Shown here: positions 1,850 to 36,500 of the stretch, piece by piece
Position numbering within the stretch: position 1 is the first letter of the stretch
How the letters are laid out: each line of letters starts with the position of its first letter
Origin: Hydrurus foetidus
Taxonomy: Eukaryota
Direction of reading: 5' to 3'
Assembly (NCBI GenBank): GCA_900617105.1
Contig: UYFQ01000604.1
Span: 1-55,776, forward strand
Length of the DNA: 55,776 nucleotides
The notes under the pieces: model-generated
The model's input: the letters and a program-made list of their open reading frames with translations, nothing else
What the model was told of the DNA's origin: nothing
Databases searched by the model: none
Program-made: the position numbers and the translations under genes

Positions 1850-4470
1850 TTACAAATTAGTGATGAAATTCATTGCTTCTGTAATTTCGTGATCATATTC
1901 TAGCATCGCACTATCATACTCTAACATGACATTCAGTTCAGGTATCACCCTGCTTGTCTCGCTTATTACAATGTCACTGTCATTGTTACTATTGTTGTCT
2001 GTATATTGTACTGTCCCTGTTGGAACTGATTTCATTGTACCGCATATGTTGTTTTTAGAGTACTCTTTAAATATTGGTGCTGATACATCAGAATCATCAA
2101 GTGGAACACATCCTGTACTAATAAATGACCTTTTCACCCCTTCTATAAACTTTTCTTTTTTGAATCCATCAGCTATTAGGTCAAACAGATCTTGGATACC
2201 TTGCAACATGTTAGGTTTGGGGGGTTGAAAAACAGGTAACGTACGTTCTTGTACATCTTTTGCTGCTTCCTCTTCATACAGTGTCTTGAACTTTTGAAAG
2301 CTTTCTACTATTCTAGCACCTCTTAAATTTCTTGTGTGTGCTTTGAGTGGTCCATTTACTACCAAATCCAGAACTTGTAGAACACCCGTCATGTTAGGTG
2401 GTAAACAGGCTATTTGGACATCTAATTCTTCAATGACATCATCTACATTACTTGTTTTATGACATCCACAATTGTCAAACCATATCATCAACTTCCCTAA
2501 CTTCTCTTTCAGTGGCTTTACGACTGTTTCTAACCACATAATCATTCTGATTGTGTCATTCCATGCTTTATACTGACTAGTTATTACGTGGCCTGTAACT
2601 GAATTAATGATGTAGTAACACGCATGAGTATTTGTTACGCCTTTTATTGTTAATTCTTTTGACCACTTAATTAGCTCCCAATTGTCATGGACACCAAATC
2701 CCTCATTCTTATTGTACATGTCTTTTATTACTCTCATATTAGTCTGGTCTGGTCTATCAGCTGAATTGACGGAGTGCTTGATTATAATAAATAAAGGTGC
2801 GAAATTACCATTACCACTCACCGCAACCACTGCTGTAATGCGAAGCATTGTATTAGGTGTTCCAATGTTTTGCGCTCGATTTTGATCAGGTGGGCAGTAC
2901 ATATACTCAGGTCCAATAGCATACGTAAACGCTGTTTCATCCATATTGATTGTCGTGTGTCTTTTGTGTGTCCGTAATCTCTATTCATTGTTTGCCCAAT
3001 ATTCATTATCCTTTGTATTTCCTCATCTGATGGGACGTTTTTATCGTCAGTCGTTATTTTTCTTCTCCGCATGTTTGCCCTCTTCAAAAAATTTCTCACC
3101 CAAGTTGAACTGAACTCTAACACCTTTATCTTTTCATCATTGATCCACCTGTCACTTGCTTGAACAGTCCTGGCAGCTTCCTCGATTATATTGTACGAGT
3201 ATACTACGCTCACAAGAATTCGGTGGACATTGATGCTGATGCCGTCAACCTATTATAAGGTACATGGACATTAAATTACGTTATTATCATGCTATAATAT
3301 GTTTTCAATATCAAAAAATATATTCAACATAAACAAAGCAAATCATTTTCATTATTGAACATAAATCGGATGCAATTATTAAATTAAAACGGTGCAACAT
3401 ACCAATTGTTTCTCAAATTCACATATCATTAATTTACCCCATACATCAGCTTCGAACTCAACCGATATCTTACGGCCAGAAGTTTTTTTCACAACATCTT
3501 TTTTATTAACCCATCTAACAATTGACTCTATGACTAGCTCTGAATATCTTGTGTACTTTGATAATATTTCCTTTGTGAATGTAGCGGTTTTATGTGTATC
3601 AATTTTGTATTTTGTCCCTTCCAATTCAATCCGAGCTGAAGCTACGGAATCGAATAACGCTATGACCATCAGAATCTCATGCAACTTAAATGTAACATTC
3701 TTATTCGGAAATTTTCTTAGAGACTCGACCACTGCAGGATATGATAGGACTTGACTCATTTGCAAATCGGTGCCATCCTCATCGCAATCGAAGATATTTC
3801 GACGGACAGCATCAAGCCCACCAGAGCTCCTGTATGCAGACTATTTTACTGCTGCATTGATGTATATTGTTGGTGACTCATCAGCAGCACATATAGAGCT
3901 TGATACAAACTCATATACTTGTTTCCCATATCTGTTCATCTGTCTATATCCAATTTCTTCACCCTTCTTCCTCCTTTTGTTGCTCTGCTCCGATGCTTCA
4001 TCAACATCACTTATCTCTTCGAGCCACATAACGCCATATATTTGGCTTATTGAAACATACTGCGATTTTACTTTATATGTTCTATTAAGTAATGTGTTTA
4101 CTGTCATGTAAATTTCTGTAACTAAGTAGTCCATCGTCGTTTCAGCACTAAGACCCTCTGTTTTAAATATGATGTCTGCGCCTCTGCACTTAGCTGGCAG
4201 ATCCATAAATTCATGCATCATATTCACTCCTTTAGAATGTACTGGAACTATGGCGCATCCAAACTGCTCGATTGATTTCTTGAATATTGTGAGCCCTTGA
4301 TGCAGAGCCAATTTATCGAATCGAAAGTTGTGATTCGAGATGTATTCAAAGCTTTTCAGCTCTTCACAGAGGGAATCAATCGACCACTGGCGTATTGTAG
4401 TAGGGCTAGGACGACAAACTAGAGCAATGGCGACAGAATAGGCGCACAATTCGGCTGAAAGAGATGCCAT
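1850..4470 (-). pseudogene. pogo-type (Tc1/mariner superfamily, DDE_1) DD35D transposase, disrupted
   Basis: Four minus-strand ORFs join into one protein. 4470-3841 continues in frame through a single TAG (3843-3841) into 3765-3403, then a GT-AG intron (~3402-3251), then a CENP-B-like HTH region (FSSTWVRNFLKR..RRRKIT), then a frameshift in an ACAC run near 2955. Catalytic motifs NMDET, WFDNCGCH and PPNMTGVLQVLD have 35 residues between D2 and D3. TIRs were not convincingly found. Confidence 0.85.
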
Positions 4471-5273
4471 CTGTATGAATCGAATGTAATAGTCAAAATT
4501 TCACATTCGAGAATGATGGGATCAAACAGGCGTGCGGGAAAATCTCAATTGACTTGATAAAGGTGCTGAAAAAGATTCTGATCGTGTCAAAAGATGACTA
4601 GCGCTTGAGAATTCAAAGTCATACGGTCCTAAACATGATAAACTCAAAAAATGGTTGTTGCAACGTTTGCAGCAAAATCTCAACTATTTTTCACCTATTC
4701 AATTTTGTCTTGCTGCTCGACAGAGATGATAAGCGGAAGATTCAGAATCACTACAGGTCACGCAAAAGCGTGGACAATTGACTGATATATTGTCAACTGA
4801 ATGATTGGTGATCCATATTGTACAGTAACAGAAGAGTTGGCCAAAAAGAGGTCCTATGTCAACAGTCCACACTCGAACCCCCGCAAACAAAGGGTCGGCG
4901 ACGGTATACATCAGTTTTGCAAGCTGACACCCCGAACGTTACACTGCGATACGGACATACGGACACAGAGCACATCTGAGTCGACTCGACACGATTGCAA
5001 TGGGCTGCCCTATTATTTGTTTGACATGACGATGGATGCTTTCAGTTGCATCTGACAGTCTTGGAAGTCAACTCCGACAATCAAAACACCCCTTCCAATT
5101 TCTTGTAGGATTTGACAGGTGGGTTTTACTGTGATTCAAGTTCTGACCTGCGTCTTGGCATTTTATTTATGATAAGTTATGACCTGCCCATTGCGTTAAA
5201 ATCTGATAACCTGTTTATTATCTTTCCTTCGTCACTTCTCGTCCTTTTTGCACTTCGCTTCGACGCAGGCAGA

Positions 5274-7886
5274 ATGTCGATCTCTCGCAAGGAAATGGCG
5301 TTCATAAACGCGGCTGCGGCTGTCCGTGACTACAATGTTGAGCCAAGACTTGAGTACAGGACAATTGCAGGCGTTCAAGGCCCTCTCGTCATTCTAGAGA
5401 ATGTCAAGTCCCCAAGATTTGCAGAAATTGTGAACATCACCTTAGGCGATGGCGAATCTCGTGTTGGCCAGGTTCTTGAGGTTGCAGGAAATAAAGCTGT
5501 GGTGCAAATTTTCGAAGGAACGTCGGGTATCGACAACAGAAAGACCAGGTGCAAGTTTACCGGAGATGTGCTCAAGATGCCAATATCAGAGGAGATGCTT
5601 GGACGAAGTAAGTGGTCTTCACTGATGTCAACGTTATTTATGTTCAACATTGGACATGTCTTACTTATGTTGATTTTACGACATATAATTCATGGGACAG
5701 CTTTCAACGGCTCCGGAAGACAAATCGATGGAGCACCAGCCGTGCTTGCAGAGGATTACTTAGACATCATGGGAATGCCAATCAATCCTTCGTCAAGGTA
5801 ATACTCCTGTTCTGCTATTCTGCTATTTTGCTATTTTGCTGCATGGAGAGGAAAGGACAAGATATTTCCGGCAGTGATGAGTTCTGACTATTGACAGAGA
5901 AAATAGCAGCGAGGATTATGAGATGCTGATTATATTATGAGGATAAGAACGTGCTGAGAAATAACGCTGCACAAATATGTGCGATAGAAAGATTTAACTA
6001 GATAATTAAATGGGTACGAGGGAAAGGGTAAATGGTATGCATCAACTTCAACATCTCAAGGCTCCTCGTCTATCGCTGATCAACATCTAATCTGGACTTA
6101 CCACTATTAACTACAATCCACACACACTAACTGTACCGCACTGTTTTCAGTTTTCAGTGTGGTACAATTGGTGTGTGTGGATTGTCGTTTATAGTGTTGG
6201 GGTCCAGATTAAGCATTAAAGTGGATCAGCAATAAATGAAGTGCCTTGAACTGCATTTGAATCTGTTAGCAGCTTCACTAGAAGTAAAGAAATGTCATCC
6301 AGCCCAGTGACTCAGCACTTCTACACAGCCTTTCAGGATTACGTTAGGGTTGTGTGAGGGATACATTCGGCTTAGGGTAGGGGTCGAAGTGAATAGAAGA
6401 CTCTCAATAAAAATGCCTCGTTGTGGGGTCGTGTTTTCTTTCTTATCGAAGTCTCCTACTTGAATGTTTAGGAAAACAAGCCGACTACCCTACATTGCCT
6501 ACCTCCCTCTAACTCTTTCCCAACTTTAATAGCCTGACTGTTGTTTGTATTGCTATGCAGATATTTTATAATGGCTTTGATTCAAACATGCACTTTTGTA
6601 AGCTGTTGTTGCTGCATTCTTCATCCGCTATCGTTAATCGCTGTGTCGTAAATGTGAGTTATCATCTATTATTTGGCACCCATTCATCACACATCATCCA
6701 CTTTATCCACCTCATCACTTATCCTCTCCTCCCATCTCCTCTCCTTTCCTCTTCTGTCCTCTACTGTCCTCCCCTCTCCTCTCCTCTCCAATTCCTCTAT
6801 CACAGAGACTACCCAACGGCCATGATTCAGACAGGCATCTCCGCCATCGATGTGATGAACTCGGTGGCGAGAGGACAGAAGATTCCTCTCTTCTCTGCTG
6901 CCGGTCTTCCTCACAACGAAGTCGCGGCTCAGATAGTGCGTCAGTCCTCCCTAGTGCAGCTGAAAGACACACTAGACGGCCACCAGGACAATTTTGCAGT
7001 GGTGTTCGGAGCGATGGGAGTTAACATGGAAACTGCTCGATTCTTCCGATCCGATTTCGAAGAGTCAGGTGCAATGGAGAGAACCGCTATGTTCCTCAAT
7101 CTCGCCAATGACCCCACTATCGAGCGCATCATCACGCCCCGTCTCGCCCTCTCCACTGCTGAGTATTTGGCGTACGAGAGAGACCTGCACGTGCTGTGCA
7201 TCCTCACCGACATGTCCTCCTACGCTGACGCTCTGAGAGAGGTATCTGCTGCCAGAGAGGAAGTGCCCGGTAGACGCGGCTACCCCGGCTACATGTACAC
7301 CGATCTGTCCACAATCTACGAGCGTGCTGGCCGTATTCACGGCAGAAACGGTTCAATCACTCAGTTCCCCATCCTGACCATGCCCAACGATGACATCACT
7401 CACCCTATACCGGATCTAACCGGATACATCACAGAGGGGCAGATTTTCTTGGACCGTAAGTTACAGTCGAAGGAAATCTTCCCCCCTATCAACGTGCTGC
7501 CATCTTTGTCTCGTTTGATGAAGTCTGCTATCGGTCAGAATCTTACGAGAGAAGATCACGGGTCGGTCTCCAATCAGCTGTACTCTTCTTACGCGAGAGG
7601 AAAGGACGTGATGGCGATGAAAGCTGTGGTGGGTGAAGAAGCCCTATCCGCTGAAGATCATTTATTCATCAAATTCGTGGAGAAATTCGAAGGCAAATTC
7701 ATCGCCCAGGGTGGTTATCAGAACAGAAGCATTTTCGAATCTTTAGATCTTGCCTGGGATCTCCTCAGAACATTCCCTCAGAACCTTCTCGGGAAGATCG
7801 ATCCAAGTATGAGAGATAAATATTACCCAAGGGGCAAGACTTTTGGACGCCCGCCTTATGTCGCGCCCACAGAGAAGCACCACTAA
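5274..7886 (+). CDS. VMA2: V-type proton ATPase subunit B; exons 5274-5607, 5701-5797, 6806-7886
   Basis: Motifs [82 protein letters not shown]. Both GT-AG introns keep the frame (GRTFNGSG; NPSSRDYP). Confidence 0.97.
6056..6249. mobile_element. MITE/foldback element family A, copy 1 (V-ATPase B intron 2)
   Basis: Imperfect inverted repeat along almost its whole length (TCAAGGC...GCCTTGA; ACAATCCACACACAC/GTGTGTGTGGATTGT). Related to 37139-37421. Confidence 0.7.
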
Positions 7887-8766
7887 ACACTAAGTGGGAC
7901 TTGGAAGGAGGTTAATGCAGTGCTGCCAATCATCACGCTGATGTCGATATGTCTAGTCGAAGTCATTGTCATTGGCAGTTTGTTTCTTTGATTCGACTTG
8001 ATATACTAACTGACTGACTGGCTGATTGACTGACTGACTGGCTGATTGACTGACTGACTGACTGACTGATGGTGCATAGCACACCACACCACACCGTGCC
8101 ACTGTATAGCCTACTACGCCACGCTATGCGATGTAAAGCGATACAATACATTGTGCCTGTCAGGCAACAGACTGAATTAATGAATGACTGACTGAATGAT
8201 TATACAACAATGACGAACGCAAATCCGGATTTTTGATACTCTATCAGAAAATTAGATGCAATATCTGAAATTTTGACGCCACCGTTCAATTTTTTCATCG
8301 TGCATTGCTTATTCAACACTTTCTGAAATATTCTTGATGCGGCATGGACAGTATAGTTTTACGGAAATATTCTTCAAGTTTAGTCACCTCTTGTACATAT
8401 GTGATTTCAAAAAGAAATGTAAAGTCGATGTGTTTAATTTTTTAATCTTTCCTAGCAGGAATTAAAAACAGTGATGAGAAAGTTGTCAGAACAATTTCCG
8501 ATTGCGCTACTCACCCTGTGATTCATGGCAACGTGACGGCATCTTACGTGGCACCAACATGTGATCTTTTGCAACGGAAAGGCGATGCATGCGGGACTTC
8601 TGATAAGTGGTTCATTCTGACGCGATTCTGTACGATGACTACAAATTATCTTACCAGAAAACTAAAAACGGGATCATAGCGCTGTCCGTATGATGCCTGT
8701 ACCCACTGTTCGCGTCACACCGATACCGTACGTGCTGTACGTACACCCCTCTCCCAAGGATTGAAT

Positions 8767-11057
8767 TCACTTCACCAAGGGTGTCAGTTCGGTTTCATCT
8801 GTCCTCTCCTCCCCTTTGATCGATGTCTCAGACTGATTTCAAAAATGAAGAAGATCGCATTTCATTACATCGAAGAATCAAATGATCGGATAACATCCCC
8901 ATATTTCTTCTCATTCCTCTTTTCTTTTCTTTTCTTTTCGATTCTTTTCTTTTCTTTCTCTTTTCTTTTCTTTTCTTTTCTTTTCTTTTCTTCTGATCAC
9001 AGCTCACATCTAGCGAAATCCCCCTGCTTCGAAGACTGATACTGGTACTGATAGAATTAGCATTGGGCGCAATAAAGACCCAAGCTGTAACGGACGAATT
9101 CAATTACGTTACGTATTCACAGTATGAACAAAACTACCCCGAAAAAAAAGAAAATAAATAAAAAATAAAAAGAAGGCAAATGACAATTCGACTTATTAAA
9201 CGTACGTACATCTTCCGCATATACAATTTCTTACGGTGCATTCTCAATATCAGCAAAAGTTATTTGTCTTTCATTTTCCACATCTAAACTTATGAAGCTT
9301 TTATCTAACACGAAATCTTCACTCTCGCCAGTCACATCGAATGATTGGGTTGTTTCTAAAATGCTCTGGATGATTAGATTAGATTCTGCTTCAGACGTTG
9401 AAGTTGGAGTTGGTTTTCTTCTTTTCATCAGTTCCGTTGTTAGTTGGCCGCATCCCGCTTCAATATCAATTCCTAGGGTATAATACGGTACAAAAATAGT
9501 ATGGCAATAAGTACCAATATACTAGACGTAAAAGTAGCGTAGGTAGAGCGAGTGGAAGTTTAACGTAAACCGCAAAACACAATGGAATCTACGGATCCAT
9601 GATCTGCAGAATTATCTGCACACGAACGTACGTACCTCTACGTGTTCTGGGAGTGGCGGTTATACCGTATTCGCCCAGCACCCTGATGAACTCATCCACA
9701 CCGGCCTGAGGAATGTACAACACAGTACGTTAGAGTAAGTATTCATCAGTGGTAGTGTGATAAGGTGTAGTATGATGTGATGTGATGTAGTGTGATGTCG
9801 TGTAGTTCGGTGTGAAGTAGTGTAGTGGCGTGGAGGGTGTGTAGATTAACATGGTGCGATATGAAGAAATTTGCCCCCGCTTTCATCTCAGTATACTCAT
9901 TTCATTTGCTTTAATGAAGTCATTTTATATCACCTCAGCAAAACGACTAAAAAAACTGACAACAGTGACACACATAAAATCAATCTTGTAGTCTGATAGT
10001 CATAGAAAAGAAAAAGAAATAGCTGTCGTACCTTAGAAGTGGGTTTGCCTCCGTATAGAGCGGTAGGATTGAGAGGAATAACGTTTACATGGCAGTGTAT
10101 TCCCCTTAGGAGCATTCCGAGATCTCTAGCAGTCTGGACCGTGTCGGTTTCGTTTCTAATGAGAGCCCATTCGAAACTAATCCGTCTATTCGTTTTCTGC
10201 ACATAGTACCGACACGCATCTAGTAGTTCTGGGATGGGATATCGCTTGTTCACAGGCATGAGTGAACTTCTTTTCGCATCATCTGCTTGGTGAAGACTGA
10301 CGGCTAATCCAACCTGCATGTCCTCTTCTGCCAGCTTCCTGATACGAGGCGCAAGGCCAACAGTAGATATCGTGATATGACGCGCACCTATTCCTAACTC
10401 TGTATTCATTCTCCTAACAGCTTCCATGACGTTGTCGTAGTTAGCAAGTGGTTCTCCCATACCCATCATCACAACATTGCTCAGACGTTGTCCATCTCTC
10501 TTCAACTCACTAGAAAAGCGCTGCACCTGCTCGAATATCTCCGTGCTTGTGAGTTGGCGGAAAAAGCCCATTTGTCCTGTAGCGCAAAATACGCAACCCA
10601 TTGCGCATCCTGCCTGGGAAGAAATGCATGCAGTCCGCCGTCCATCTTCATATGGCATCAGAACACTCTCAATTAGTTGACCATCATGAAGCGCATATGC
10701 TCTCTTTGTTGTCCCATCTTTCGAAACCTGCTCTGATGCCATCTTTAAATCCCCGACGCTAAAGTTTTCAGTAAGCTTTGTACGGAGAGCGATCGGCAGG
10801 TCCATCATTTTGGCAAAGTCGTCGACTCCTTTCTCATAAACCCATGACCTCACTTGCCCCACCCGAAATGAGGGCTGTCCCCAACTCTTCATAGTCTGCT
10901 TTAGCTCTTCCTCAGGCACAGCATAGAAGTTTTTCAAAGCGGAAAGTTTTGTGGTTGAATGGAACTTACTCCTGACCACATTCAAAGATGCCCGCAAGGA
11001 AATAGAAATCGGAACGATCGCGCATAACGACATTGAAAAACAGATAACCCTCAACAT
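8767..11057 (-). CDS. rlmN: RlmN-family radical-SAM 23S rRNA/tRNA methyltransferase, probably plastid-targeted; exons 11057-10032, 9705-9636, 9472-9235, 9047-9008, 8832-8767
   Basis: Motifs IESVLMP, CISSQAGCAMGCVFCATG (CxxxCxxC), MGMGEP, ISTVG, VSLH, VNVIPLNP. The C-terminal RRGIDIEAGCGQL is reconstituted across frame-preserving introns. N-terminal hydrophobic signal plus Ser/Arg-rich transit-like stretch. The last two exons are less certain (alternative stop at 9231 if intron 3 is retained). Confidence 0.93.
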
Positions 11058-14442: not shown

Positions 14443-14806
14443 TGTTGTGAAAGTGGACACAAAGGTGATACGCGTACGTCTGTACGGTCGTTCACACGCT
14501 CCCCACTGCTAGACTCTCCGACTGCTTCTCTGTTGGCGCGCTCCGGCGGTCAAGATCACACGAGTTGGCTACGAGTTTTGGGTTAATTAGCACTGCCGCA
14601 ACGTAGCAGTTATCGGTGGTTGTGGTCTGAATTGCAGTGATGTTGTAGTAGTTGCAGTTGTACTTCTACTACGTGTACATCACATCGTTTGCAGTACGAG
14701 TTTGAACGTGAGTGTTCTTACGTGTACATGAAACGACATACAGATACACAATTCATATACGGAATATCACAATTCAAATTCGATTTATATAATAAGTACG
14801 ACTACA
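14443..14806 (-). repeat. 3' LTR of the copia element (364 bp)
   Basis: 14443-14717 is identical to 20340-20614. It begins TGTAGT directly after the PPT and ends CAACA. Confidence 0.93.
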
Positions 14807-15247
14807 CACCCCTATGATGTGTACATTATCGAGTTAGTTCAAGTGTTCGGCTTACATTTCTTACTTAACTTAACAATGCAATTTTAATTCAATTTTTATT
14901 AATTTTTATTTCAAACATATTCATTCAATTTATGACTATGGCTTATGTCTAACTAATGACTCCGGAATGTTACGTCGACGTCTTCTTTCTTTGATCCTTG
15001 ATCGGAAATTAATCGTTTGGGTTGGTAGAATTTAGTAGAGATAGATGTAGTTGAAGGTTGGAAGTCTTGGTCTTGGTCTTGAGTGTTCAGGTCTTGGAGG
15101 TTGGTAAGGAAGGTAGAAGGTTTGAGATTGAAGGAGAATTGATTCACACATAAATATAATACAATGCATCAGGATGATGTTGGCCAAAGTGGTAGAAAAG
15201 ATTTAGGAAAAGCGTAGGTAGAAGGAATTATTTATGGAGTGGAATAC

Positions 15248-18200
15248 TCAGGTGGTGTTGAGTAGTTGGTTTCGTTGAGCTCTGAACTGCTCTCCTTGGA
15301 GTGGTTTTGTTAGCATATCTGCTAACATGTCGGTTGTAGGTTTATATATGATGGTGATGTCTTTTTCTTTTATCCGGTCATGCAAAAAGAAATACCGGAT
15401 ATCAATATGTCTTGTACGTTCACTGTTGGACCGACCGTTATTGATGAGTTGGATGGTGGATTTGTTGTCTTGAAAAATGATGGCGCTCCTGTCTTGATAT
15501 CCTTGGTCGATGAGAAATAGTCTTGTCCATAGCACTTGATTGGCAGAGTCACTCAGTCCCACTAGCTCCGCTTCCGTGCTTGATTTGGTGGTGAGTTTCT
15601 GTGTCGAACTCTTCCCATAGATTGCTCCCTTGCCTAGCGTGATCACACTCCCCGTATGGCTCTTCATGTCTTGATGTACGCCATAAGATGCGTCTATGTA
15701 GCTCGTGACGGTGATAGGTTCGTCAATCTTCAGCGTTAGTCCAAGGTCTTTACTGCCTCGGATGTACTGGATGGTACGTTCCAATTTCTTCATATCCTCC
15801 CCCTTGGGCTTCGTTACTCTCTTTGTCAGGAATGCTACCGGCGTCAGGATATCCGGTCTTGATCTTTTACTTAAGTATAGTAGCTTGGCTGTAATAGAAT
15901 GGAAATACTCACGAGCATAAGTGGTTAACAAGGGGTCAATATTATCCGGTTTGACTAGAAATAAATCTGTCTTAGCCGGTGTGGGTGACACCCCTAGAAT
16001 CTCCTTGCAATCTTCAAGCAGCTCTTTAATAAATCCTTCCATAGTTATCCTAACTTGTCCCGCTGTTTCAAAGTTGAAAGTCATACCTATATAATTAAGA
16101 ACTTTTCCTCGATGTTTGGTTAGTCCAGGATATAGTTTTTCAATTTCATCTATCACCATATCAACATGTTCATCATCACAACAAGTTATCATCATATCAT
16201 CAACATGAATTATTAATGTAGTTTGTTTATTATTATGTTCAGTTCGATTAAACACACACATGTCATAAGCATTAGCATTATAGCCTAACACCGACAAGTC
16301 ATGTGAAATTTTATCATACCATAGTTTTGCAGATTCAACACATCCATACAATGCTTTTTTCAATTTCACAATGCATGTTCCTTTATCATTAACATATCTC
16401 ATATAAGATTTATCAATCGAAATCAACACGTCAGTTAAATATTTATTCAGTCTCATAAATACAGTGTGGCTACCTTCAAGTGGCATATCACTGTTCAAGA
16501 ATGCACCAGGAAAATCAATCGTAGCTAATGATCTATTCTCTTTGGCAGCAATCGATGCAATTATAAACACACTAGTAGTACTGACAGTAGGTGAAGATCC
16601 GTTATCATATATCTCTCTATCTTGTAAATGACCTCCTGCAACTAGTCTAGATTTTAACTTATCAAATTTACCCTCAGCTGTATACTTATCTTTTAAAAAC
16701 ATACTGCTAGTTATGATGTTGTTTCTCTGTAATGGACTAAGCGAGTTGATCAGTACTCCCTCCCACACATCTTTATCACACATCTGTTTCATTTCTTTTC
16801 TAATGGAATCTACTGCTATATCACCTAGCTTACTTATTCCATCTTTAATTGTCATATTAAAATTATAAGAGATATCATAGTTGTGTGACATGTCAGTTAT
16901 ACAACATCCTATGTTATTATTTCTTCTTCTAGTTACCCATCTACCTGGCTGATGGTTTCTAGCACTACTTCTCAAAGCAGGCTGTTCAATCTCAGGTAGT
17001 TCATCGGTAAGTACGTCATCAACAGTGTACGTATCATCTGTTACATTATCAGGTACGTACGGTGTAAGTACATCATCTTCGATATACGTGCTCTCTACTT
17101 CAGGTGTGTCATATTCTATCATAGTATCGTCATACTCAACAGATTCAATATTCACATCATCAGTCTCTAGCTGTACATCATCAAAATTATTTATTTCATC
17201 AACATCATCAATTACCTCATCAATATCATCAGTCACCTCAACGTCAGTCGGTTCATCGATGACAGGTAATTCATTTATGACAGATTCAATATGAAGTTCA
17301 TTGTTATATGAGTCATCATACATTTCATCAGAATATTCATTAACATTATTACTAACAGCTCTCTTATTATATCTATGCATTAAGTCATCATCATAGTCTA
17401 ATCCATCATCAGGTATTAGTCTTCTATTCTGTTCAAACACAGGCTGATTAGTATTGTTAATCTTATTTAATTTTCTCTTCTCTGATAACTTATTAATATA
17501 CATAATCACTTCATCAGGAACAGGTAATGGTGTAGCTTTAGTGCGTTTGACTATCTGTTCATTACTGAGTAACATATAATACCAAGATCCTTCTAAGTTG
17601 CCCGCACTCATAAGAGCTATAGCACCTGAAGTTCTTGATTTATTAGAGTTATCAATATTATCAGAATGAACTTGCACATAGTCACCAAAACCGTGTTTTA
17701 ACTCTTTGTCTACGTTAATCTTTCTACCGTAAAGTTTTTCTCTCGGGCTAGCATACTCTACGGTATTCCTGGTTGGTACCAGTACTATTCTGTTAACTGC
17801 ATATCTAACTAGCCATCCTTCTAATTTCTCAGTCAGATTATATGGTAACGTATTTACAACTGCTCTGACCTTCTCTTTAACTTGTCTTATCTTACGCTCT
17901 ACTACTGTCACCGCTTCTCCTGCACCTGACGTATCTAGAGCTGTACCTATGGATGCTAACTTAGTCTCAAACCAGATTGAGTTGATGGCTCCTTCACCAT
18001 CTACCCTCACTAGGTCTATACTAAAGCCATACTTAGTGATATGTCTTATATCGCTCTCTAAGCTAGTCCATAGTGTAAGGTTATCTCTCTTAGCTAACTT
18101 ATTAACCATAACGTATTCTAACGGTTTAACAACGGCAATTAAGAATGGGTTGCCGTTAACAAACATAAGGTCTATGTACATGATCTGATTTCTATCTTGT

Positions 18201-18640
18201 ACAATATCTAACAAAGGTTGCTCTTCTTCAATCTGTGCCTGATGGCTTGGCGTTTTCCCTTTTAGGGAGCCTAAGTCAGGACCCCAGATATCCAAAGCTC
18301 TAACTACATCTTGCGCTGTTATGTCTGATTTAACTAGTTTACCCTGTCCTATCAGCTTAACTAACTGTCCTGGACTGGCATATCCTAATTTCCTCTGATA
18401 TTCTCTAGCTAACTCAGCTTGTTTAACTTGTCTAACTGTATACTTCTTCATCTTATCATTAACTGTAGTAACTAACATTAACTTAGGCTTACTTACCATA
18501 CTGTTGAGATCGCATATATATATATTAAACTTCTTATCTCTGTTAAAATAATAACAACATCCGCCTTTGCTCACTTGCAAACTGTAAAAATCATGTTTAC
18601 TACTATATGAAACTGAGTAACAATTATTTACCATATTCAA
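15248..18640 (-). CDS. pol: Copia pol: integrase, reverse transcriptase, RNase H
   Basis: IN: YIDLMFV, VDGEG, VERKIR. RT: KSRLVAGG, DFPGAFL, LKKALYG, IHVDD. RNase H: YIDASY, SSTEAE, QDNKS, HIDIRY, ADMLTKPL. Open for 1130 codons. Confidence 0.96.
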   Translation of the reverse strand: MNMVNNCYSVSYSSKHDFYSLQVSKGGCCYYFNRDKKFNIYICDLNSMVSKPKLMLVTTVNDKMKKYTVRQVKQAELAREYQRKLGYASPGQLVKLIGQGKLVKSDITAQDVVRALDIWGPDLGSLKGKTPSHQAQIEEEQPLLDIVQDRNQIMYIDLMFVNGNPFLIAVVKPLEYVMVNKLAKRDNLTLWTSLESDIRHITKYGFSIDLVRVDGEGAINSIWFETKLASIGTALDTSGAGEAVTVVERKIRQVKEKVRAVVNTLPYNLTEKLEGWLVRYAVNRIVLVPTRNTVEYASPREKLYGRKINVDKELKHGFGDYVQVHSDNIDNSNKSRTSGAIALMSAGNLEGSWYYMLLSNEQIVKRTKATPLPVPDEVIMYINKLSEKRKLNKINNTNQPVFEQNRRLIPDDGLDYDDDLMHRYNKRAVSNNVNEYSDEMYDDSYNNELHIESVINELPVIDEPTDVEVTDDIDEVIDDVDEINNFDDVQLETDDVNIESVEYDDTMIEYDTPEVESTYIEDDVLTPYVPDNVTDDTYTVDDVLTDELPEIEQPALRSSARNHQPGRWVTRRRNNNIGCCITDMSHNYDISYNFNMTIKDGISKLGDIAVDSIRKEMKQMCDKDVWEGVLINSLSPLQRNNIITSSMFLKDKYTAEGKFDKLKSRLVAGGHLQDREIYDNGSSPTVSTTSVFIIASIAAKENRSLATIDFPGAFLNSDMPLEGSHTVFMRLNKYLTDVLISIDKSYMRYVNDKGTCIVKLKKALYGCVESAKLWYDKISHDLSVLGYNANAYDMCVFNRTEHNNKQTTLIIHVDDMMITCCDDEHVDMVIDEIEKLYPGLTKHRGKVLNYIGMTFNFETAGQVRITMEGFIKELLEDCKEILGVSPTPAKTDLFLVKPDNIDPLLTTYAREYFHSITAKLLYLSKRSRPDILTPVAFLTKRVTKPKGEDMKKLERTIQYIRGSKDLGLTLKIDEPITVTSYIDASYGVHQDMKSHTGSVITLGKGAIYGKSSTQKLTTKSSTEAELVGLSDSANQVLWTRLFLIDQGYQDRSAIIFQDNKSTIQLINNGRSNSERTRHIDIRYFFLHDRIKEKDITIIYKPTTDMLADMLTKPLQGEQFRAQRNQLLNTT

Positions 18641-19058
18641 AAGACAAAATGTTAGCTATACAACTAGGATCATAATAAACTACGCCAAAATCAGTATTCC
18701 CGCATTCTCTTATAACCATCGGCTTGCCTTTGCTATTTACTCCGTTAACTACTAAGGGTGTGTGTGTGCATGCAATGTCATAGAACAGAGTTCTAGTTCT
18801 AAACACAGATTCACCAGCACATGTGTCTAACAGGAGTTGATAGTCATGGAATACATTAACAGAATTCGATAAATCTAAACTAAATATTACTCTATCCGTT
18901 TCGGTGACATCCTCCTCTTCATCCTCTTCATCTAATTGTTTTACATATTTAATAGTGGAGAATTTTACATGTCTATCAACACTGTCACATTGCACATTCA
19001 TTTCATCACTGCTAGCTAAGTCATCATGTAAAGAATCATATAATCCACTTACTTTCCC
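18624..19058 (-). CDS. Copia aspartic protease segment of pol (in the -1 frame of gag; out of frame with IN-RT at ~18640)
   Basis: LLLDTCAGESVF active-site-like motif, then VNGVN and ANILS. No convincing independent start codon. Confidence 0.8.
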   Translation of the reverse strand, partial: GKVSGLYDSLHDDLASSDEMNVQCDSVDRHVKFSTIKYVKQLDEEDEEEDVTETDRVIFSLDLSNSVNVFHDYQLLLDTCAGESVFRTRTLFYDIACTHTPLVVNGVNSKGKPMVIRECGNTDFGVVYYDPSCIANILSFEYGK

Positions 19059-20287
19059 TTTGCAGGTGGTGGTGTGCCTTTGCCGCCCGGACTCCTGGGA
19101 CCAGCCTCCTTCCAGTACTGTTCCTCCATTGGCTGCGCTTCTTCTCTGCACTCTTGCGCGAAATGTCCGTACTTGTTGCAGTTATTGCACGGTCCTCTTT
19201 TGTATCCAAAAGGTGGTGTTTTGCTGGCAGTGTATACTGCTACTGTAGATCCTTTCTCGTTTTTGTATCCCTCAGGGGAATCGGGTCCCGGACCGTCCCT
19301 CACCCACTTCCCGTTAGGTGTACTCTTCCCGTTGCGTCCTCCCGGGTACCCTCTGCCTCCTCTTCCACCTCTTCCGTGGAATGCGAATGCATTGGCACGT
19401 TCAAATGCTGCTGCATTTGCTTGTGCTGCAACTCGACGATGAATAGGGTTGAATTTTGTTGCCTCAAAGTTGGCATCGTTGAGGTTGTTCGGCCAAGGCT
19501 TCAGTCTATTAATGTAAAAAGATTTGAACTCATCGTAATGATGGTTCAGTCCCATAGTAAATTTTATAGCCATTTGGCTTTCTGGATACATGCCATCAAT
19601 TTCATGTTGGCCAATCCTCGCGTATGCCTGCTCTATCCCAGTCAATGCTGATCTAAAGTTTATGTAATAGTTGCTGAGAGACTCATGGGAGCCCATAACT
19701 AATACGTTGTATCTCTGAATGATGTTGAATAGTTGATGGTTCTCCTCTAGTGTCGAATCTCCAATATGTGTTGATAATATTGCTTGGAGTAGCTTCCGCG
19801 GATCAAATTCAGTGACGGCTTCCTCACCGACCGGATCCTCCCGTGCTCGGATCTTGGAGCTTTCTGACATTTGTCCTAGCATAAATCCGTACAACTTTCT
19901 CTTATCATCCTTCAGTTTTGTAACTAGCTTCTTATACTCCGCGTAGTCAATCTTCCATTTCTCCTTCTCGATCGGCGTTGCATCCACTCCTGGGTCCAAC
20001 GGCACCACGTATACAGGATAATCTCCAAGAGTTCCATCTTGCCCAAAGATTAAACTGATCGTGGTGTCGTTATTGGACATTGAGTACTCCTTCAATTTGA
20101 TCATCCACTTGGTAACCGCGCCCGGGGCAATTTCCTTCCCTGGCGGTAGATCCAAGTATGCACCAATCTGAGGTATTGTCCCTCGTTGATGGTTGTTCGC
20201 TGGTGCATTTCCTCTGCCACCACGACCGAAATAACCTCGTCCACGACCTCCCTGCTTCTGTTGCTGGGGAGATCCACGTCCTTTCAT
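19049..20287 (-). CDS. gag: Copia gag (RGG-rich ends, CCHC zinc knuckle)
   Basis: First ATG after the LTR (MKGRG). Zinc knuckle CNNCNKYGHFAQEC. Capsid-like MGSHESLSNYYINF and FTMGLNHHY segments. Confidence 0.9.
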   Translation of the reverse strand: MKGRGSPQQQKQGGRGRGYFGRGGRGNAPANNHQRGTIPQIGAYLDLPPGKEIAPGAVTKWMIKLKEYSMSNNDTTISLIFGQDGTLGDYPVYVVPLDPGVDATPIEKEKWKIDYAEYKKLVTKLKDDKRKLYGFMLGQMSESSKIRAREDPVGEEAVTEFDPRKLLQAILSTHIGDSTLEENHQLFNIIQRYNVLVMGSHESLSNYYINFRSALTGIEQAYARIGQHEIDGMYPESQMAIKFTMGLNHHYDEFKSFYINRLKPWPNNLNDANFEATKFNPIHRRVAAQANAAAFERANAFAFHGRGGRGGRGYPGGRNGKSTPNGKWVRDGPGPDSPEGYKNEKGSTVAVYTASKTPPFGYKRGPCNNCNKYGHFAQECREEAQPMEEQYWKEAGPRSPGGKGTPPPAKGK

Positions 20288-20328
20288 CGTTGCAATGTTT
20301 GGTTGCAAACTTCAAATTGGAACGATGA

Positions 20329-20339
20329 AGTGCTAATTA
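20329..20339 (-). promoter_or_regulatory. Non-tRNA primer-binding site (TAATTAGCACT), complementary to LTR positions 20491-20481
   Basis: Lies directly after the LTR-terminal CA, lacks TGG, and is a perfect 11-nt reverse complement of AGTGCTAATTA inside the LTR. Confidence 0.75.
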
Positions 20340-20705
20340 TGTTGTGAAAGTGGACACAAAGGTGATACGCGTACGTCTGTACGGTCGTTCACACGCTCCC
20401 CACTGCTAGACTCTCCGACTGCTTCTCTGTTGGCGCGCTCCGGCGGTCAAGATCACACGAGTTGGCTACGAGTTTTGGGTTAATTAGCACTGCCGCAACG
20501 TAGCAGTTATCGGTGGTTGTGGTCTGAATTGCAGTGATGTTGTAGTAGTTGCAGTTGTACTTCTACTACGTGTACATCACATCGTTTGCAGTACGAGTTT
20601 GAACGTGAGTGTTCGTACGTGTACATAATTTAAACGACATACAGATAATAGCATCACAATTCATATACGGAATATCATAAGTACGATTTTATATAAGTGA
20701 TATTA
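20340..20705 (-). repeat. 5' LTR of the copia element (main part; its outermost bases lie at 24569-24573 beyond the Harbinger)
   Basis: Direct repeat of 14443-14806, interrupted at a TTA by the Harbinger. The remaining CTACA and the TSD CACAG follow the Harbinger right end. Confidence 0.92.
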
Positions 20706-20928
20706 GGCCAAACCTTATAGCGCCACGGATTACACATTTTTAATCGAAAATTCGTCATCCTGCCAACTTTCAGACCCATATAGCGCCTCGGAATCGTATT
20801 TTGAATTTCGTATTGACTGATTTCAACAATTCGTAACGAGATATGGGGCACTTCTTCGTAATCCAATTCTCGTTTTGGATGACGATATTGAGATTACATT
20901 CAAATCACATTCAAACACCAATATCTCA

Positions 20929-22643
20929 ATGGCGGCAACAAAGCGCCAGTTGCTGGTCGTCAGATCCAAACAGTTCTTGTTGATTGCCCGAGCGGGCATG
21001 TCAATTCCATCATATGAAATGTCGCTCGGGCAAATCCAAGACAAAATGATGACGCAAATGCATAGTCATGTATCATCCTTCATCCAGCCGGCTTCCATAC
21101 GCCTTTTGAACAAAGACAAATACCTTCGGACCTGCAAATTTATGAATCCTAGCGTCGAAGTGGATGATGAGCACACGGGCATCAGTTTATGGAGGAAATA
21201 CGCCGATATCAAAAAATATGTTACCAATAGCATTACTCCCTTCTATTTCAAATGTCTGGGGAAGGATGGTCTTATTCCTTCGGGAAAATCAAAGGAGGAG
21301 ATTCTATACAAGACTCGGGAGTTGCTGTTCAAGTCTGAACAGGAAGCTGCGAAGAGCCGTTCGAAGAATCCTAGAGGATACGTCGTGAAAGAATTCTCCC
21401 CTGATTGGTATCCTACAGAATGGGAAGTGTTTCTTTTGTATGGAGCAGCTTCAGAGAAGCCTGATAAAGCCTTCTACATGGAGTAAGTTGATGTCTGCTT
21501 ATTTTAATTCTTAGATACATTGCTAATGATAATTGTACGTCATCAGGAAGTCCTCTGGTCCATCGTCTCTATCCTCCTCCTCCCAAAATCAACCGACCAA
21601 GTCTCAGAATCGCAAGACTCAAAGACATTTGCAGAGGAAAGAAGAGCTCCAAAAGATTAATGTGGAGCTCAAGAAACCATCCAAGCATGACCAACTTATC
21701 GATCAAGAGTCGAAAGTCAGTGCCAACAACTTGGCCATCAACAAGGCAATGGTGGAGCTGAAGTTGAGACAACAGGTAAATTTTATAATCGAATACAACT
21801 AAATCACACTTTAATTCATTGTATTTTCTTCCGCAGAGAATCCTGGAGCTTGAGAAGTTGCTGAGCCTGGAGTTCTTGCCGGATCTGGACCGAGGACCAT
21901 TGCAAGATGAATACATGAATTATTTAATGAATGGCGGACCCGGTATTCAAAATTATCAGCCAATCAGGGAAGATCCACCTGAAGCTGAGACAGAAGTACC
22001 TATTGCAACAGTCCTTAGTGATGTGGAGGAGCCCAATCCCATGGATACTAGCACCCAGTCCATCACCTCTCGCATAACATTAGAGAAGTATAACACAGAC
22101 GCAGACACGGATGAGGATGACAATGCGGGAGAGGAGGGAGGCGAGGGGGATAACGGAGAGGAGGATGAGAATGGAGAGAACCTAGAAGAGAATGAGAGTG
22201 AGGAGAACAAAGATGAGGCAGCTGACGAAGATGAGGGAGAATCTGGAAAGAGATGGGAAGATGATGGCGAAGACGAAGAAGAGAAGGAGATGATTGAGAA
22301 GGAGAAAAGCTATGGAACCATTAGAACCAACCCATCGAAGTCAAGGAATGCTGTCTTTACTCCAAGTGAGCCTACACAAGACTCTTCTGAAACCTCCTAT
22401 GAAATGTTCGAACGCCGTCAAAGTCAGGTTCCAATCACAAGACCTTTCGTATCCCGAAACACTTCCTCCTCTTCATCTTCTTCGTCGAGTTCATCTTCTG
22501 CTACAAGTGTTGAATCCGGAAGGGTGACAAGAGGCTCGGCCACCAAGAGATCAAAGGGCGAGGTCAACGTTACTGTGGAAGAGGAAGATAATGAGGACTA
22601 TTTCTCGGTGCCAAAAAGGGCAAAAAGGGGAAGAAATAATTGA
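20929..22643 (+). CDS. Harbinger accessory (putative Myb/trihelix-like DNA-binding) protein; exons 20929-21482, 21547-21775, 21837-22643
   Basis: Lies inside the TIRs. Two short GT-AG introns preserve the frame. SLWRKYADIKKY helix, acidic and Ser-rich tail, C-terminal NLS-like PKRAKRGR. The Myb-like assignment is by position and analogy only. Confidence 0.78.
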
Positions 22644-22832
22644 ATTTCATATCAAATGATGTCTTTTAAATTACAATTGTATGTCACATGATATCAATAA
22701 ATATTTACAGAATGTTAAATGAGCTTATATTCGACGTAGGAGGTAAATTTGTTTTTTTTTTTAAAATCAGTGATCAGGATTCAGTGATTCGTTAACGGAT
22801 TTTCAAATTACTTAAATTATAAAAAGTTATTT

Positions 22833-24284
22833 TTAAACACATTTCTTCTTTAACCACTTCACATCATTGATTGAATGTTTATAGGCAAAGTGATCTACCA
22901 ATTTCTTATTTAATTGACTATAAGAAGTTTCATATTCTTCCACTTCGTCTCCATGTGAAAATTCGAAAATATCTCTGTTACGTTCTACTCCTATATAACT
23001 GTAATCACTAATGGATGTTAAATTTCTAACTCTGCTCAAATGCTGACGAAAAATAAACATATCTTCTGCAGCATGTTCACCATCTCTACCAGCATAATTA
23101 ACATCTTTTTCCCAACGCACATCCAGACCATCAAATGTAAGTAATAAATTATGAAAGATACAGCAAGTGAAGAACATATTATCAACTACATCTCTTGTAT
23201 TATAAAATATAGGTACTTTTAAACAACGAAATCTACCTTTTAATGAACCAAATGTACACTCAACATCTTTCCGCACTGACTCAGCCCATTCGCTCCACAG
23301 AGCTTCTTTTTTAATAGCTGAGTGTCTCAACGGACACTGAAGACACCTCCACTTATGATACCCTCCATCAACAAGAAGATAACATCCCTTCTCCAGATAT
23401 TCTTCTCCATTTTCTTTGCACATCTTGTATCTCACATTCGAATAAAGATCTTCGTCATGAATTGCTGAAACAAATCCATCAAAACGAACAATCGTTTTGT
23501 CATTTTTCGCTCCAGGAAATCCTTTCGTAGCAGAAATAATTTTAGAGGTATGATCGACAGTAACCTCATATGATATTGTTGGGTAACCCTCCTTCCCTTT
23601 GTGTAAAGATCTATCTCCCACTGGACACCTTTCCCATCGGATATGAACACAGTCTGTACTGCCAATACATCCAGGGAAACCCAATCTATCGTAGACGCTT
23701 AAAGTCCTGTTAACCTCATCATCAGTCAAAGGTGCGTTGCAGTAAATCTCGAAATATTTCTTTGAAAAGAGAGAGCAAAAAGAGTGAAAGAAAATCCTGT
23801 TGCATTCAGCACTGATAAAGGAAAGCTCCTCAATTCCATCGAAACAATAACCTCTACCCAGAACACGTAAAACTCCAAGAATTTTAAGCTCTAACGGAGC
23901 ACCTCTTCTACCAGACGCATCTCCTCTCTCCGTAAACCAATTGTTCTCTCTCGTAAGTGCAACTATTCTTTCGAATAGAGGAAAAGGAACCCGAAAGCGA
24001 AGTCTAAATAGAACTCCACCTTTCCTATCACCAGGATCACGAGTTCTCGGATTAAGAAGCATTCTCCCCCAGGTTGAATACTCGTACATTGGACGGTCCT
24101 CTGACTTTCGCATACGGAAGACTATCATCTTATACTTGCTATCATTGACTTCCTCATCATCGTAAGGATTCATAGCTAACATTTTGCGACGTTTAGCGGA
24201 TGCCTCTTCCGCTAGATTAATTGCATACATGACCGCCGCAGAGTTAGCATACTCGTTCACCATAGAGTATTCAGAGTCGTACAT
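22833..24284 (-). CDS. PIF/Harbinger DDE nuclease (HARBI1-like transposase)
   Basis: Motifs FRLRFRV, GFPGCIGSTDCVH, GAKNDKT, LVDGGY, RKDVECTFGSLKGRF, CCIFHN. Uninterrupted 483 aa. Confidence 0.94.
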   Translation of the reverse strand: MYDSEYSMVNEYANSAAVMYAINLAEEASAKRRKMLAMNPYDDEEVNDSKYKMIVFRMRKSEDRPMYEYSTWGRMLLNPRTRDPGDRKGGVLFRLRFRVPFPLFERIVALTRENNWFTERGDASGRRGAPLELKILGVLRVLGRGYCFDGIEELSFISAECNRIFFHSFCSLFSKKYFEIYCNAPLTDDEVNRTLSVYDRLGFPGCIGSTDCVHIRWERCPVGDRSLHKGKEGYPTISYEVTVDHTSKIISATKGFPGAKNDKTIVRFDGFVSAIHDEDLYSNVRYKMCKENGEEYLEKGCYLLVDGGYHKWRCLQCPLRHSAIKKEALWSEWAESVRKDVECTFGSLKGRFRCLKVPIFYNTRDVVDNMFFTCCIFHNLLLTFDGLDVRWEKDVNYAGRDGEHAAEDMFIFRQHLSRVRNLTSISDYSYIGVERNRDIFEFSHGDEVEEYETSYSQLNKKLVDHFAYKHSINDVKWLKKKCV

Positions 24285-24842
24285 TTTGTCTGCTGAAGGT
24301 TACTTTTAACGAAGTAGAAATTGTGTCGAGGTTTGACTTATAGCCAACCTTTCGAAGACTTTCAGAAACAAGTAATTCAGAAAAATGTTTCAGTGATCCT
24401 TATAAGGGCTACAAAAAGCCAAAACGAATTTTAAAATACAGATTTTAGGATTTCGTTTCAGTGATCCTTATAAGGGTCAGCCCGGGGTCAATCACCAATA
24501 CGGATTGTTGATCACGATTTTTTTGAAATCCGTATTCCGTAATCGGTGCGCTATAAGGTTTGGCCTTACTACACACAGATCGGTCAAGATCGGATTCCAT
24601 CATTGCCAGCACAGCACGACGATGGATGATGGATGACGGCAATGGACAATGGACATGGCAGTACTAGCAAAGGTGCACTAAAAACCATATCTGTGGAGGA
24701 CTGGAGACAAGACTCCTCGAGATCACAAGCGAGGGAACAACAGTTCCATCTAAAACAGATAAAAATCCAACGTAACTTCTCTGCGTTACACTATATTCGA
24801 AGGACTCGATTGTGTCGACTTGGAATCAGCGTGACTCCCTCA

Positions 24843-33584: not shown

Positions 33585-36500
33585 CATGATTATTATTACT
33601 ACTACTATTATTATCACTGTTATCATCTTTAATACGATCGCTTTTCAAATAAGCAGGACTTAATCTGGAATCCAAAGGTGCAAGATCCTTGGCAAGAAGA
33701 TCTTTTCTCCTTTTCAAATTTATCTCCGCTTGTTTCTCCACATATTCCAAACAATGCAGAGACCGTATGCCGGATATTTCCGCGCCACTTACGGCCATTT
33801 CCGGTATAATGTGTTCGTGGACATTCATACCTAAAATATTTGAGTGCGTAAATGAATTAAATCAGTTATAGCAGTTGTGTAGTATTCTGAATGATTCAAA
33901 TTATTTGTGTATCTTTTTTTGTGTCTCTAAAATTATTCTTATTTTCTCTTATTTTTTCTATCTTAGTCTTCAGTATAAACAGCACCTACACTACATCTTT
34001 ATCGATCGTGACAAATGTGCTGATGTATTCCTCCTATCGGCAAGGTCATGCAAACATAGTACACACATCTATTCTTAAGTGCGTCATTAGCGGATCAATA
34101 AAGACCAGTTATGTTACATTTTACCACAGTAACAAAACCAAATTACGGTGACAAATTGTATTCAAAAATTGAAATACATAAATTCTGGTAGTATAATCTC
34201 TCCCTCTCACCTTTTGCCAAAGAAATGGAATTACCATCTAATTTTAGGAATTCTGGAGCAATGTATTTTGTTCTTTCAATTTTTGCTTTCGACAAAATTT
34301 CAGCGTCTTTTATTACAAGATTTTTATTTCCCATTCCGCCTTTTTCAGATTTTCGATTTTTTTCTACTGGCAAATCAACAACATCTAATTTGTTCATTTT
34401 AGAAATATCATTTTCAATTTCAGGAATATTCATAATACGTCTCGGAGTATGAATAATTGTAAATTTTGAAATTATGAAATCTAATTCTCTTTGCAATATT
34501 AACCCCTCCGAATTTTGTTTTTTCACCACTACCTCATTCACTACCTTGTTTATTATCGCTGCATTCAAATTGCAGCTTTTTCTGATTACTGTTGAATACA
34601 AAGTAAGGCAATGAAACAAAAACAATTAGACATGAATGAAGTTTTAATGACTTTAGACGATTTCAATATTAGGGATTGCAATGGATAAACTATCACTTCA
34701 GAATTTTCATGACGCCCAATCGTATGATAGCATCCAGTGAGATGTCGTATCTGAATCATCTTATATTCCTTGCTGTATAACAAGTACAACGAATAGAGAT
34801 GTGATGGGAGGTTACATTTAAAATATGAAAATATAATCGTACGTGTGCTTGCAATATGACATCAAGTGAAGGAACATATGAACCATCCCATCTCCTTATC
34901 CTCCTATATCGCGTAGAAAACACGTCTGAGAATATCGGATTTTCGTCAGTAATCGTTAAATGGACTAACGTTACTGACGAAAATCCGTTATTCTCAGATG
35001 TGTTTTCTACGCGATATAGGAGGATAAGGAGAGAGGATGATTCATATGTGCCTTCACTTGATGTCATATTGCAAGCACACGTACGATAAAATTTGCACAT
35101 CTAAAATGTTACCTTACCTTACCTTACTTCACAACACATCACATCACATCACATCACATCACATCACATCACATCACATCACATCACATCACATCACATC
35201 ACATCACATCACAACATATCACATCATATCCCATCCCATCCCATCCCATCCCATCCCATCCCATCCCATCACAACACATCACATCACATCTCATCATATC
35301 ACATCACATCAAATCACATCACATCACATCATATCCCATCTCATCACATCACATCATATCACATCACATCACGTTATCTCAACTAAAAGGGAAAAGCTGT
35401 ATAAAGCAAAACAGTCATCAAAGATTTTTGATGCAGATTCAGAAGAATTAACCCTACAACCCTCAATTAATAAATCTAATAAGTAGGAAATTAATGCAAC
35501 TTTCAGTAGTTTACCAAACTTTTCACTCACATGTTTGCACAAAAACCGTAAAAAATGAGGAAAACATTTAAGAAATGAAAGTTTTGATATCTTCAAACAC
35601 GAAAATTATTTTGTGAAGTGAGGATTTTTGGACAGAAATGTGACTATTGTTGAGGTCAAAATAACAAATATTCTCACGGATTTCTCGAAGCACATTTGAT
35701 GAAGATATCAAGTATCAAACGTCACTCTAAGCGATCATTTTTGAGTACGAAAATACGACAATCCTGTTTGGTTGTGACTTCGACAATACCGTACCTGGAT
35801 TTAATAGTCGGTCAACACGGCCAAAATCATCCGGTATAATGGGCAGTTTATTTGAGATTTCATTTTTTTCAAATTCTTCAAATGCTCTCAATATTTGGAC
35901 ATTATTTTTGTCCAATGCAATTTCTTTCGCCGTGAATCCTGTCAATTATAATGGACCATTGCGGTACATTTTAAATCAATTTCAAATATTTTTACGGTGT
36001 TCGTAACGATGATTGAAATTGAGCATGTTCAAGTTGTTTTAAAGTTTGATTGAAAAATGAATAAATGCGAAGACGGTGAATAGATGAGAAAGAAAGAGGA
36101 TAGAAAAAAAAAAAGTTAAAAATGAGAGAGTAAGAACGACAGAAACTAACAGCAATCGGGAAAGAAAGATGAGGATTAATAGAGATATAAGGCTTTCGTT
36201 TTAAACGGGAAAAGTTAACGTGAATCCGGCAAAATCTAAAACTAATTCAGCAGTACAATGTACAAAAAAATCTAGGAGTACGGGATAAAAAAGAAATCAA
36301 TACAAGAATGATTCATAGAACGTATGTATTTACATGCGTACCATCTTTCGATAGAATGGATCTATCCACACCGAATAGAAGCAGAGTGTAGCATATGCGA
36401 TGGGCACTTCTGATGGGACAGTCGAGGGCTGCAAGGTGAAGGGCAGTGTAGCCTGATAGAGAGGGAAAGAGAGGAGAGTGGATTGGAGGTGCGGTGATGT

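Follow-up and report, generated by a model that had tools for sequence, protein, structure and literature searches.

The Ty1/copia (Pseudoviridae) retrotransposon described here, which lies on the minus strand of a 55,776-nt contig of Hydrurus foetidus (UYFQ01000604.1; the whole stretch is herein referred to as the window), probably makes its Gag-Pol polyprotein by programmed −1 ribosomal frameshifting at the heptamer G GGA AAG, directly beside the gag stop codon; judged from sequence, this is the best reading of the junction. The feature itself is real, conserved and functional-looking, and its mode of action is most likely similar to −1 frameshifting in retroviruses. The preliminary description of this DNA had left two mechanisms side by side, a −1 frameshift and a micro-intron that removes the stop; the former is now favoured, given a clade-wide signature at the end of Gag and the loss of acceptor or donor in relatives, and the latter is disfavoured.

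A full-length copia element and its gag-pol junction

The element is full-length, extending from 14443 to 24573 on the minus strand (insertion included), and is assigned to Ty1/copia on the basis of two LTRs with TG..CA ends, a 5-bp target duplication, the domain order gag-PR-IN-RT-RH and a reverse transcriptase of the RVT_2 type. The 3′ LTR (14443..14806, minus strand; 364 bp, TG..CA) follows a purine-rich tract and is flanked by the target duplication CTGTG at 14442-14438, whereas the 5′ LTR is split into a main part (20340..20705, minus strand) and its first five bases (24569..24573, minus strand), displaced by the insertion of a DNA transposon and flanked by CTGTG at 24578-24574. The two LTRs share 287 identical bases but are dissimilar in the initial 80-90 bases of U3 (20702-20627 vs 14806-14730); the 5′-type U3 letters are present in contigs of two sequencing runs (X1 and X3) and the target duplication matches on both sides. 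The difference possibly reflects a template switch between subfamilies, or an effect of assembly.

Between the LTRs, gag (19049..20287, minus strand; 1,239 nt, 412 aa) runs from an ATG at 20287 to a TAA at 19051-19049 and encodes a C-terminal zinc knuckle. The pol segment that continues from the junction in the −1 frame (18624..19052, minus strand) belongs to an ORF at 19181-18624 and carries the protease motif LLLDTCAGES, and the second part of pol (15248..18655, minus strand) holds integrase, reverse transcriptase and RNase H in copia order. Reverse transcriptase has an RVT_2 Pfam match (E 6.9e-21) at residues 655-883 of the last ORF, downstream of an integrase-like region that has no integrase match in Pfam; integrase and RNase H are assigned by their motifs and position. 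A Pfam search at E up to 0.1 detected no chromodomain at the integrase C-terminus, a trait of CoDi-A elements.

Immediately inside the 5′ LTR, an 11-nt stretch (20329..20339, minus strand) is complementary at 11/11 bases to the element's own LTR at 20491-20481, and the pairing appears as a helix in the centroid structure. It is therefore a candidate self-priming site of the Tf1 type, like the 11-nt LTR-complementary primer sites described in the available parts of the reports on Tf1 and the plant TAR/Houba copia lineage (PMC7175516, PMC6317226); a half-tRNA-Ile primer of the Bianca kind was an alternative considered for the site, and no tRNA gene was found in the window. The LTR core at ~14616-14580 is matched by six RNA reads and by another family's very deep contigs, and is therefore shared between families.

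The inserted DNA transposon is of PIF/Harbinger type (20706..24565, strand unassigned; 3.9 kb), recognized by its inverted ends, TAA duplication and an ORF with DDE_Tnp_4/Plant_tran matches, and it splits the 5′ LTR five bases from its start; two further ORFs within it (20821-21486 and 21789-22643) have no Pfam match. Elsewhere in the window, an ORF at 1850-2980 with a DDE_1 endonuclease domain represents another DNA-transposon gene, and a 68-nt coding-like repeat (family D9) occurs in five dispersed minus-strand copies (12573, 26097, 29079, 30745 and 35719) near ORFs without Pfam matches, probably constituting a local gene family. There are also two inverted repeats, one of 144 nt (91%, 18-nt spacer) at 34809-35114 that adjoins a long CATCA microsatellite and one of 65 nt at 37165-37400.

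On the minus strand gag ends AAG GGA AAG TAA GT, as first described: the heptamer (19052..19058, minus strand) comprises the last two Gag codons and one base in X XXY YYZ phase, with the TAA (19049..19051, minus strand) directly 3′ of it. It is the only correctly phased heptamer of this form in the 1,239-nt gag, the one other, AAATTTA, being out of phase. Reading in the −1 frame passes the junction without a stop and enters the protease, with 75 codons from GTA to the catalytic Asp of LLLDTCAGES, and this open −1 frame is also conserved in relatives; when 20,000 base shuffles were read in the same way, the 69 codons past the junction remained open in 0.125%. Since the heptamer is the sole phased one and such an open frame is rare in shuffles, the layout is more than chance. 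The stop also overlaps a consensus donor GTAAGT (19052-19047), a hexamer that occurs twice in the element, and AGs that would restore the frame lie at intron lengths of 41 and 44 nt, both as the preliminary description had it. Further frame-restoring AGs lie at 71, 80, 161 and 173 nt, and an out-of-frame TAG at 37 nt, overlooked at first, precedes the 41-nt acceptor.

Conservation of the offset in the family and clade

Other copies of the family retain the frame offset. A contig of the X1 run covering 18471-20339 (depth 680, vs ~125 for host genes) and a contig of the X3 run covering 18901-20339 both lack any indel at the junction; either run may be related to the source of the window. A second frame break near 18637 (18630..18645, minus strand), absent from the preliminary description, behaves differently: here the window copy lacks 2 bases that the covering family contigs have (in X1 the whole depth, in X3 53/57 depth units), and a relative (P0073) encodes a continuous 1251-aa Pol that is 99% identical to that of the element. 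The window copy is thus defective because of a break that is private to it, whereas the gag-pol offset is not private. The possibility that the offset itself arose by mutation in this copy alone, a dead single-ORF element, can draw on this one private break but has next to no probability, given family contigs without a junction indel, KGK ends in 5/12 Gags of the element's own cluster and a two-ORF layout that extends down to ~48% RT-RH identity. A private 1-nt deletion, which the preliminary description had named as a finding that would overturn its reading, is excluded, the offset being both family-wide and clade-wide.

Evidence for the wider clade comes from the two proteins separately; sampling was centred on the query, and most of this evidence is protein-only, from automatic gene calls on short contigs. 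In a FastTree phylogeny of Pol (66 of 87 Pol matches long enough for inclusion, plus the window), the element falls inside a 46-row clade (SH 97) that contains 0 gag-fused members and reaches down to about 48% RT-RH identity, whereas 18 of the 21 rows outside it are single-ORF gag-pol. Similarly, only 4 of the best 150 matches to a Gag profile run from Gag into protease, all of them low in the ranking, and none of 7,987 longer candidates was a gag-pol fusion (a weak test). A single origin of the two-ORF design, from ancestors with one ORF, is probable. The host is a eukaryote with introns that occurs in metagenomes from freshwater, biofilm, sediment and air. Few of the Atlas look-alikes have an assigned taxon; those that do are mostly diatoms, which is a lead only. 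Scanning metagenome and viral contigs with the Gag profile gave 76 and 75 pattern matches and 0 relatives, and a protease-motif scan gave 0 hits in viral contigs, 0 in prokaryote genomes and five metagenome loci whose translations were all unrelated. Pol relatives vary in the linker that precedes the protease, but a short motif, N-x-Y/F-x-x-L-x-x-D/E, recurs in it and could be a cleavage or binding site.

Gag relatives show what is held constant at the end of the protein. We found 72 of them, 53 with a full tail; the terminal residue is K or N in 50 of these 53, and 34 of those end KGK. In the element's own cluster (P0001, n=12) the 5 KGK ends stand beside 2 members that are cut short and others that are frameshifted upstream (4, plus 1 without a full tail). 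The four have in common a shift ~30 codons ahead of the usual stop, after which they terminate in another frame within five codons; one of them lies on a contig that equals in length (5,888) that of the intact Pol P0073, possibly a Gag-defective copy or subfamily.

A more distant set consists of the 66 Gags among the best 150 profile matches that have a zinc knuckle followed by a tail of 10-60 aa, with the internal positions of the same tails as background. These Gags terminate in K or N in 48/66 cases (background 20%) and in N in 27/66 (5.4%), and the terminal triplet is compatible with X XXA AAZ in 33/66 (background 4.9%; binomial p 7e-26), rising to 44/66 when the fit may fall at the last or next-to-last position. 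All four homopolymer classes are covered, since the endings N-P-N, N-L-N, G-G-N and x-K-N occur. An in-phase heptamer is hence present in the element and, statistically and at the protein level, conserved in the clade, with exceptions: one X1 contig reads G GGG AAG instead of G GGA AAG, P0054 decodes to a non-canonical heptamer, and Gags ending E-K, V-K or S-K fit relaxed sites only. Junctions decoded from two other families continue into pol as K-K-V-S with the phase unchanged, one of them carrying an indel of one codon within the putative intron, and TAA is forced in three out-of-frame readings. A further candidate, P0610, was dropped as an out-of-frame junction because its ending is an ordinary in-frame one.

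At the nucleotide level, the constraint is concentrated in a short island (19014..19068, minus strand) that comprises the heptamer, the stop and ~35 nt downstream and is common to diverged families. In 4/4 runs from four studies, contigs of other families at 80% likeness accumulate over 19068-19014 alone and are divergent to either side of it, with depth rising from 680 to 10,919 in X1, from ~8 to 322 in X9, from 9 to 104 in X16 and from 0 to 166 in X18. The contigs placed at 80% likeness in the four runs number 27, 29, 18 and 12, of which partial fits account for 24, 20, 9 and 8; the contig tables give part of the differences, and single-base invariance of the island is therefore beyond them. 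Bins over the gag body at 90% likeness contain the element's own family alone (690-752), even though the gag body of relatives shares long near-invariant peptide motifs. The constraint on the junction therefore appears to exceed what the protein needs. All 12 of the downstream loose ends listed for these contigs, read by hand, are open in the −1 frame.

Probable frameshifting and its alternatives

We hypothesize that most ribosomes would terminate at the TAA that follows, releasing Gag, and that in the remainder the tRNAs on GGA and AAG would re-pair on GGG and AAA, allowing the shifted ribosomes to continue G-K-V-S into the protease. Ribosomes would be made to pause jointly by the adjacent stop and by the weakly folded, conserved 35 nt that follow it, not by a local pseudoknot, and a low shift rate (a few percent) would supply the excess of Gag needed by particles. 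Several observations count against this reading: the absence of a stimulatory structure, the bacterial-type A_AAG, the retention of the donor-like GTRAGY, and the imperfect heptamers in P0054 and in one X1 contig. The structure for which the preliminary description suggested folding the downstream sequence was not predicted, the z-scores on six windows (0.37 to 2.19) being in no case better than those of shuffles, in folds computed without explicit pseudoknots; a search for a long-range duplex partner likewise gave none better than shuffled controls (15 mononucleotide shuffles, coarser step). As far as folding models go, the junction fails the canonical test of a stable 3′ stem-loop or pseudoknot.

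The retained donor invites a reading that overlaps the preferred one, in which both signals work: frameshifting would give Gag-Pol, and the donor would bind U1 against premature polyadenylation or be spliced to a distant acceptor, yielding a gag-only RNA like those of copia and EVD. This would account for a GTRAGY that is kept without a fixed acceptor. Single-ORF copia elements carry a donor at the end of gag, according to the available text of PMC5580714, and the present clade has its origin among single-ORF relatives. However, GT may merely reflect the context of the stop and the V-S codons of pol, and we consider such a double role rather unlikely.

That the stop is removed by a short, inefficiently spliced intron we judge to be unlikely. 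The intron would begin at the G of AAG and end at one of two acceptors, removing 41 nt (19012..19052, minus strand) or 44 nt and fusing gag to pol, while unspliced genomic RNA would yield Gag. Its GT..AG ends restore the frame, the perfect GTAAGT includes the stop, and nothing downstream of the junction folds better than shuffles. GTRAGY is forced in two other families (P0081 and P0082, assuming that Gag stops there), to which the three forced TAAs may be added; one host intron uses GTAAGC, and in the Ogre elements, in the parts of PMC6317226 available, two ORFs are separated by an intron that is only partly spliced. The island also ends, and conservation fades, near the 41-nt AG, which is kept in 7/10 of the listed loose ends that test the position; nonetheless, the other 3/10 lack a frame-restoring AG in 30 nt (7 contigs, three runs). 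The donor is kept in close families and the pair of donor and acceptor is not conserved in relatives: in 29/66 distant Gags the donor is impossible, the terminal codon being unable to end in G and to form G-TAA, as in all Gags ending in Asn, whose codon cannot supply that G. Nor does an intron explain the fixed terminal K or N, and the stretch that it would remove has no stop in the pol frame and codes for a peptide shared by three families. Host introns with RNA support (n=3) measure 79, 214 and ~326 nt, and each uses the sole AG at its end, whereas here the out-of-frame TAG at 37 nt would come first. Two raw RNA runs (same species label, one sample, ~6% of each) contained host-gene reads and zero reads in bins 16860 to 20339, and so bear on neither mechanism; no RNA dataset was listed as carrying the element. 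Longer introns of 161 or 173 nt are rejected, since no stop interrupts the pol frame there, and in-frame readthrough is rejected because many stops follow in the gag frame.

It is very unlikely that Pol is made separately, be it through re-initiation or internal initiation past the gag stop or from a transcript of its own, with the island as the signal. A short, unstructured, conserved element beside the stop could serve re-initiation, but no start is conserved: the called Pol starts lie 7 to ~150 residues before the protease, several of them GTG or TTG, and the AUGs within the island are in the gag frame. Free Pol would be without a Gag tether for packaging, and the slippery-compatible Gag ends would be left unexplained. 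Internal promoter activity described at the Tca2 junction, in the available portion of PMC2194720, counts in favour of this reading.

Relation to known recoding systems

Programmed −1 frameshifting, the reading that we prefer, places the junction closest to the −1 sites of retroviruses and Ty3/gypsy elements, which likewise have pol in the −1 frame and an in-phase X_XXY_YYZ at the end of gag (PMC5009743, in part); the G_GGA_AAC and A_AAA_AAC types described there are compatible with many distant Gags of the clade. The element differs from these in its copia domain order, in the stop right after the heptamer, in the AAG at the A-site position (in this subgroup) and in having no predicted hairpin or pseudoknot. 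From the same partial source, the heptamer is identical to the G_GGA_AAG used by the archaeal virus HCTV-5 and resembles the A_AAA_AAG of dnaX, but here a eukaryotic ribosome and tRNA set are involved and there is no Shine-Dalgarno or stem-loop stimulator; A_AAG is described as a bacterial-type shift codon, the shiftiest of the mammalian sites listed ending in AAC or UUU. G_GA and G_GU are tolerated as XXX, and a nearby stop is required for shifting in pea enation mosaic virus (PMC5009743, in part).

Within the superfamily, the strategies described in the accessible literature are +1 shifting (Ty1-Ty4), an in-frame stop (Tca2), single ORFs with splicing to Gag (copia, EVD and BARE1) and two separated ORFs (Bianca), all meeting the same need for excess Gag, whereas −1 shifting is described for retroviruses and for 28/51 animal retroelements, a count not split by superfamily. 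Unlike the other copia elements, the present one has pol in the −1 frame, open up to the gag stop, and any splicing would yield Gag-Pol, not Gag. No −1 signal in a copia lineage is described in the available parts of PMC2806351, PMC6317226, PMC5009743, PMC2194720, PMC5580714, PMC2774666, PMC6875170, PMC5445492 and PMC7175516, although Gao et al. 2003 or the supplement of PMC2806351 may list two-ORF or −1 copia elements. The diatom CoDi elements, compared by description only, share the PR-IN-RT-RH order (PMC2806351, PMC2774666); some in which a single stop or frameshift separates gag from pol are noted in PMC2806351, and the portions of these two papers available describe no recoding mechanism for them.

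Taking the clade as a whole, we tentatively suggest, as a possibility that we hold well short of probable, that an old protist copia clade switched from a single ORF to stop-coupled −1 frameshifting without a local pseudoknot, and that in this subgroup the bacterial-type A_AAG, the adjacent stop and a conserved 35-nt element without structure, to which a protein or the ribosome, perhaps also U1, would bind, together form a new eukaryotic frameshift cassette. Such a cassette would be small (~55 nt), without the usual folded stimulator and reliant on an AAG codon thought to be poor in eukaryotes, and could reveal a new type of stimulator or a new role for the stop codon; if splicing were true instead, the junction would hold an unusually short, stop-removing intron. 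A clade-wide −1 shift would add a further route to Gag-Pol in copia elements, which are usually described as using a single ORF with splicing, +1 shifting or readthrough, and would indicate that a −1 strategy can arise inside a single-ORF lineage.
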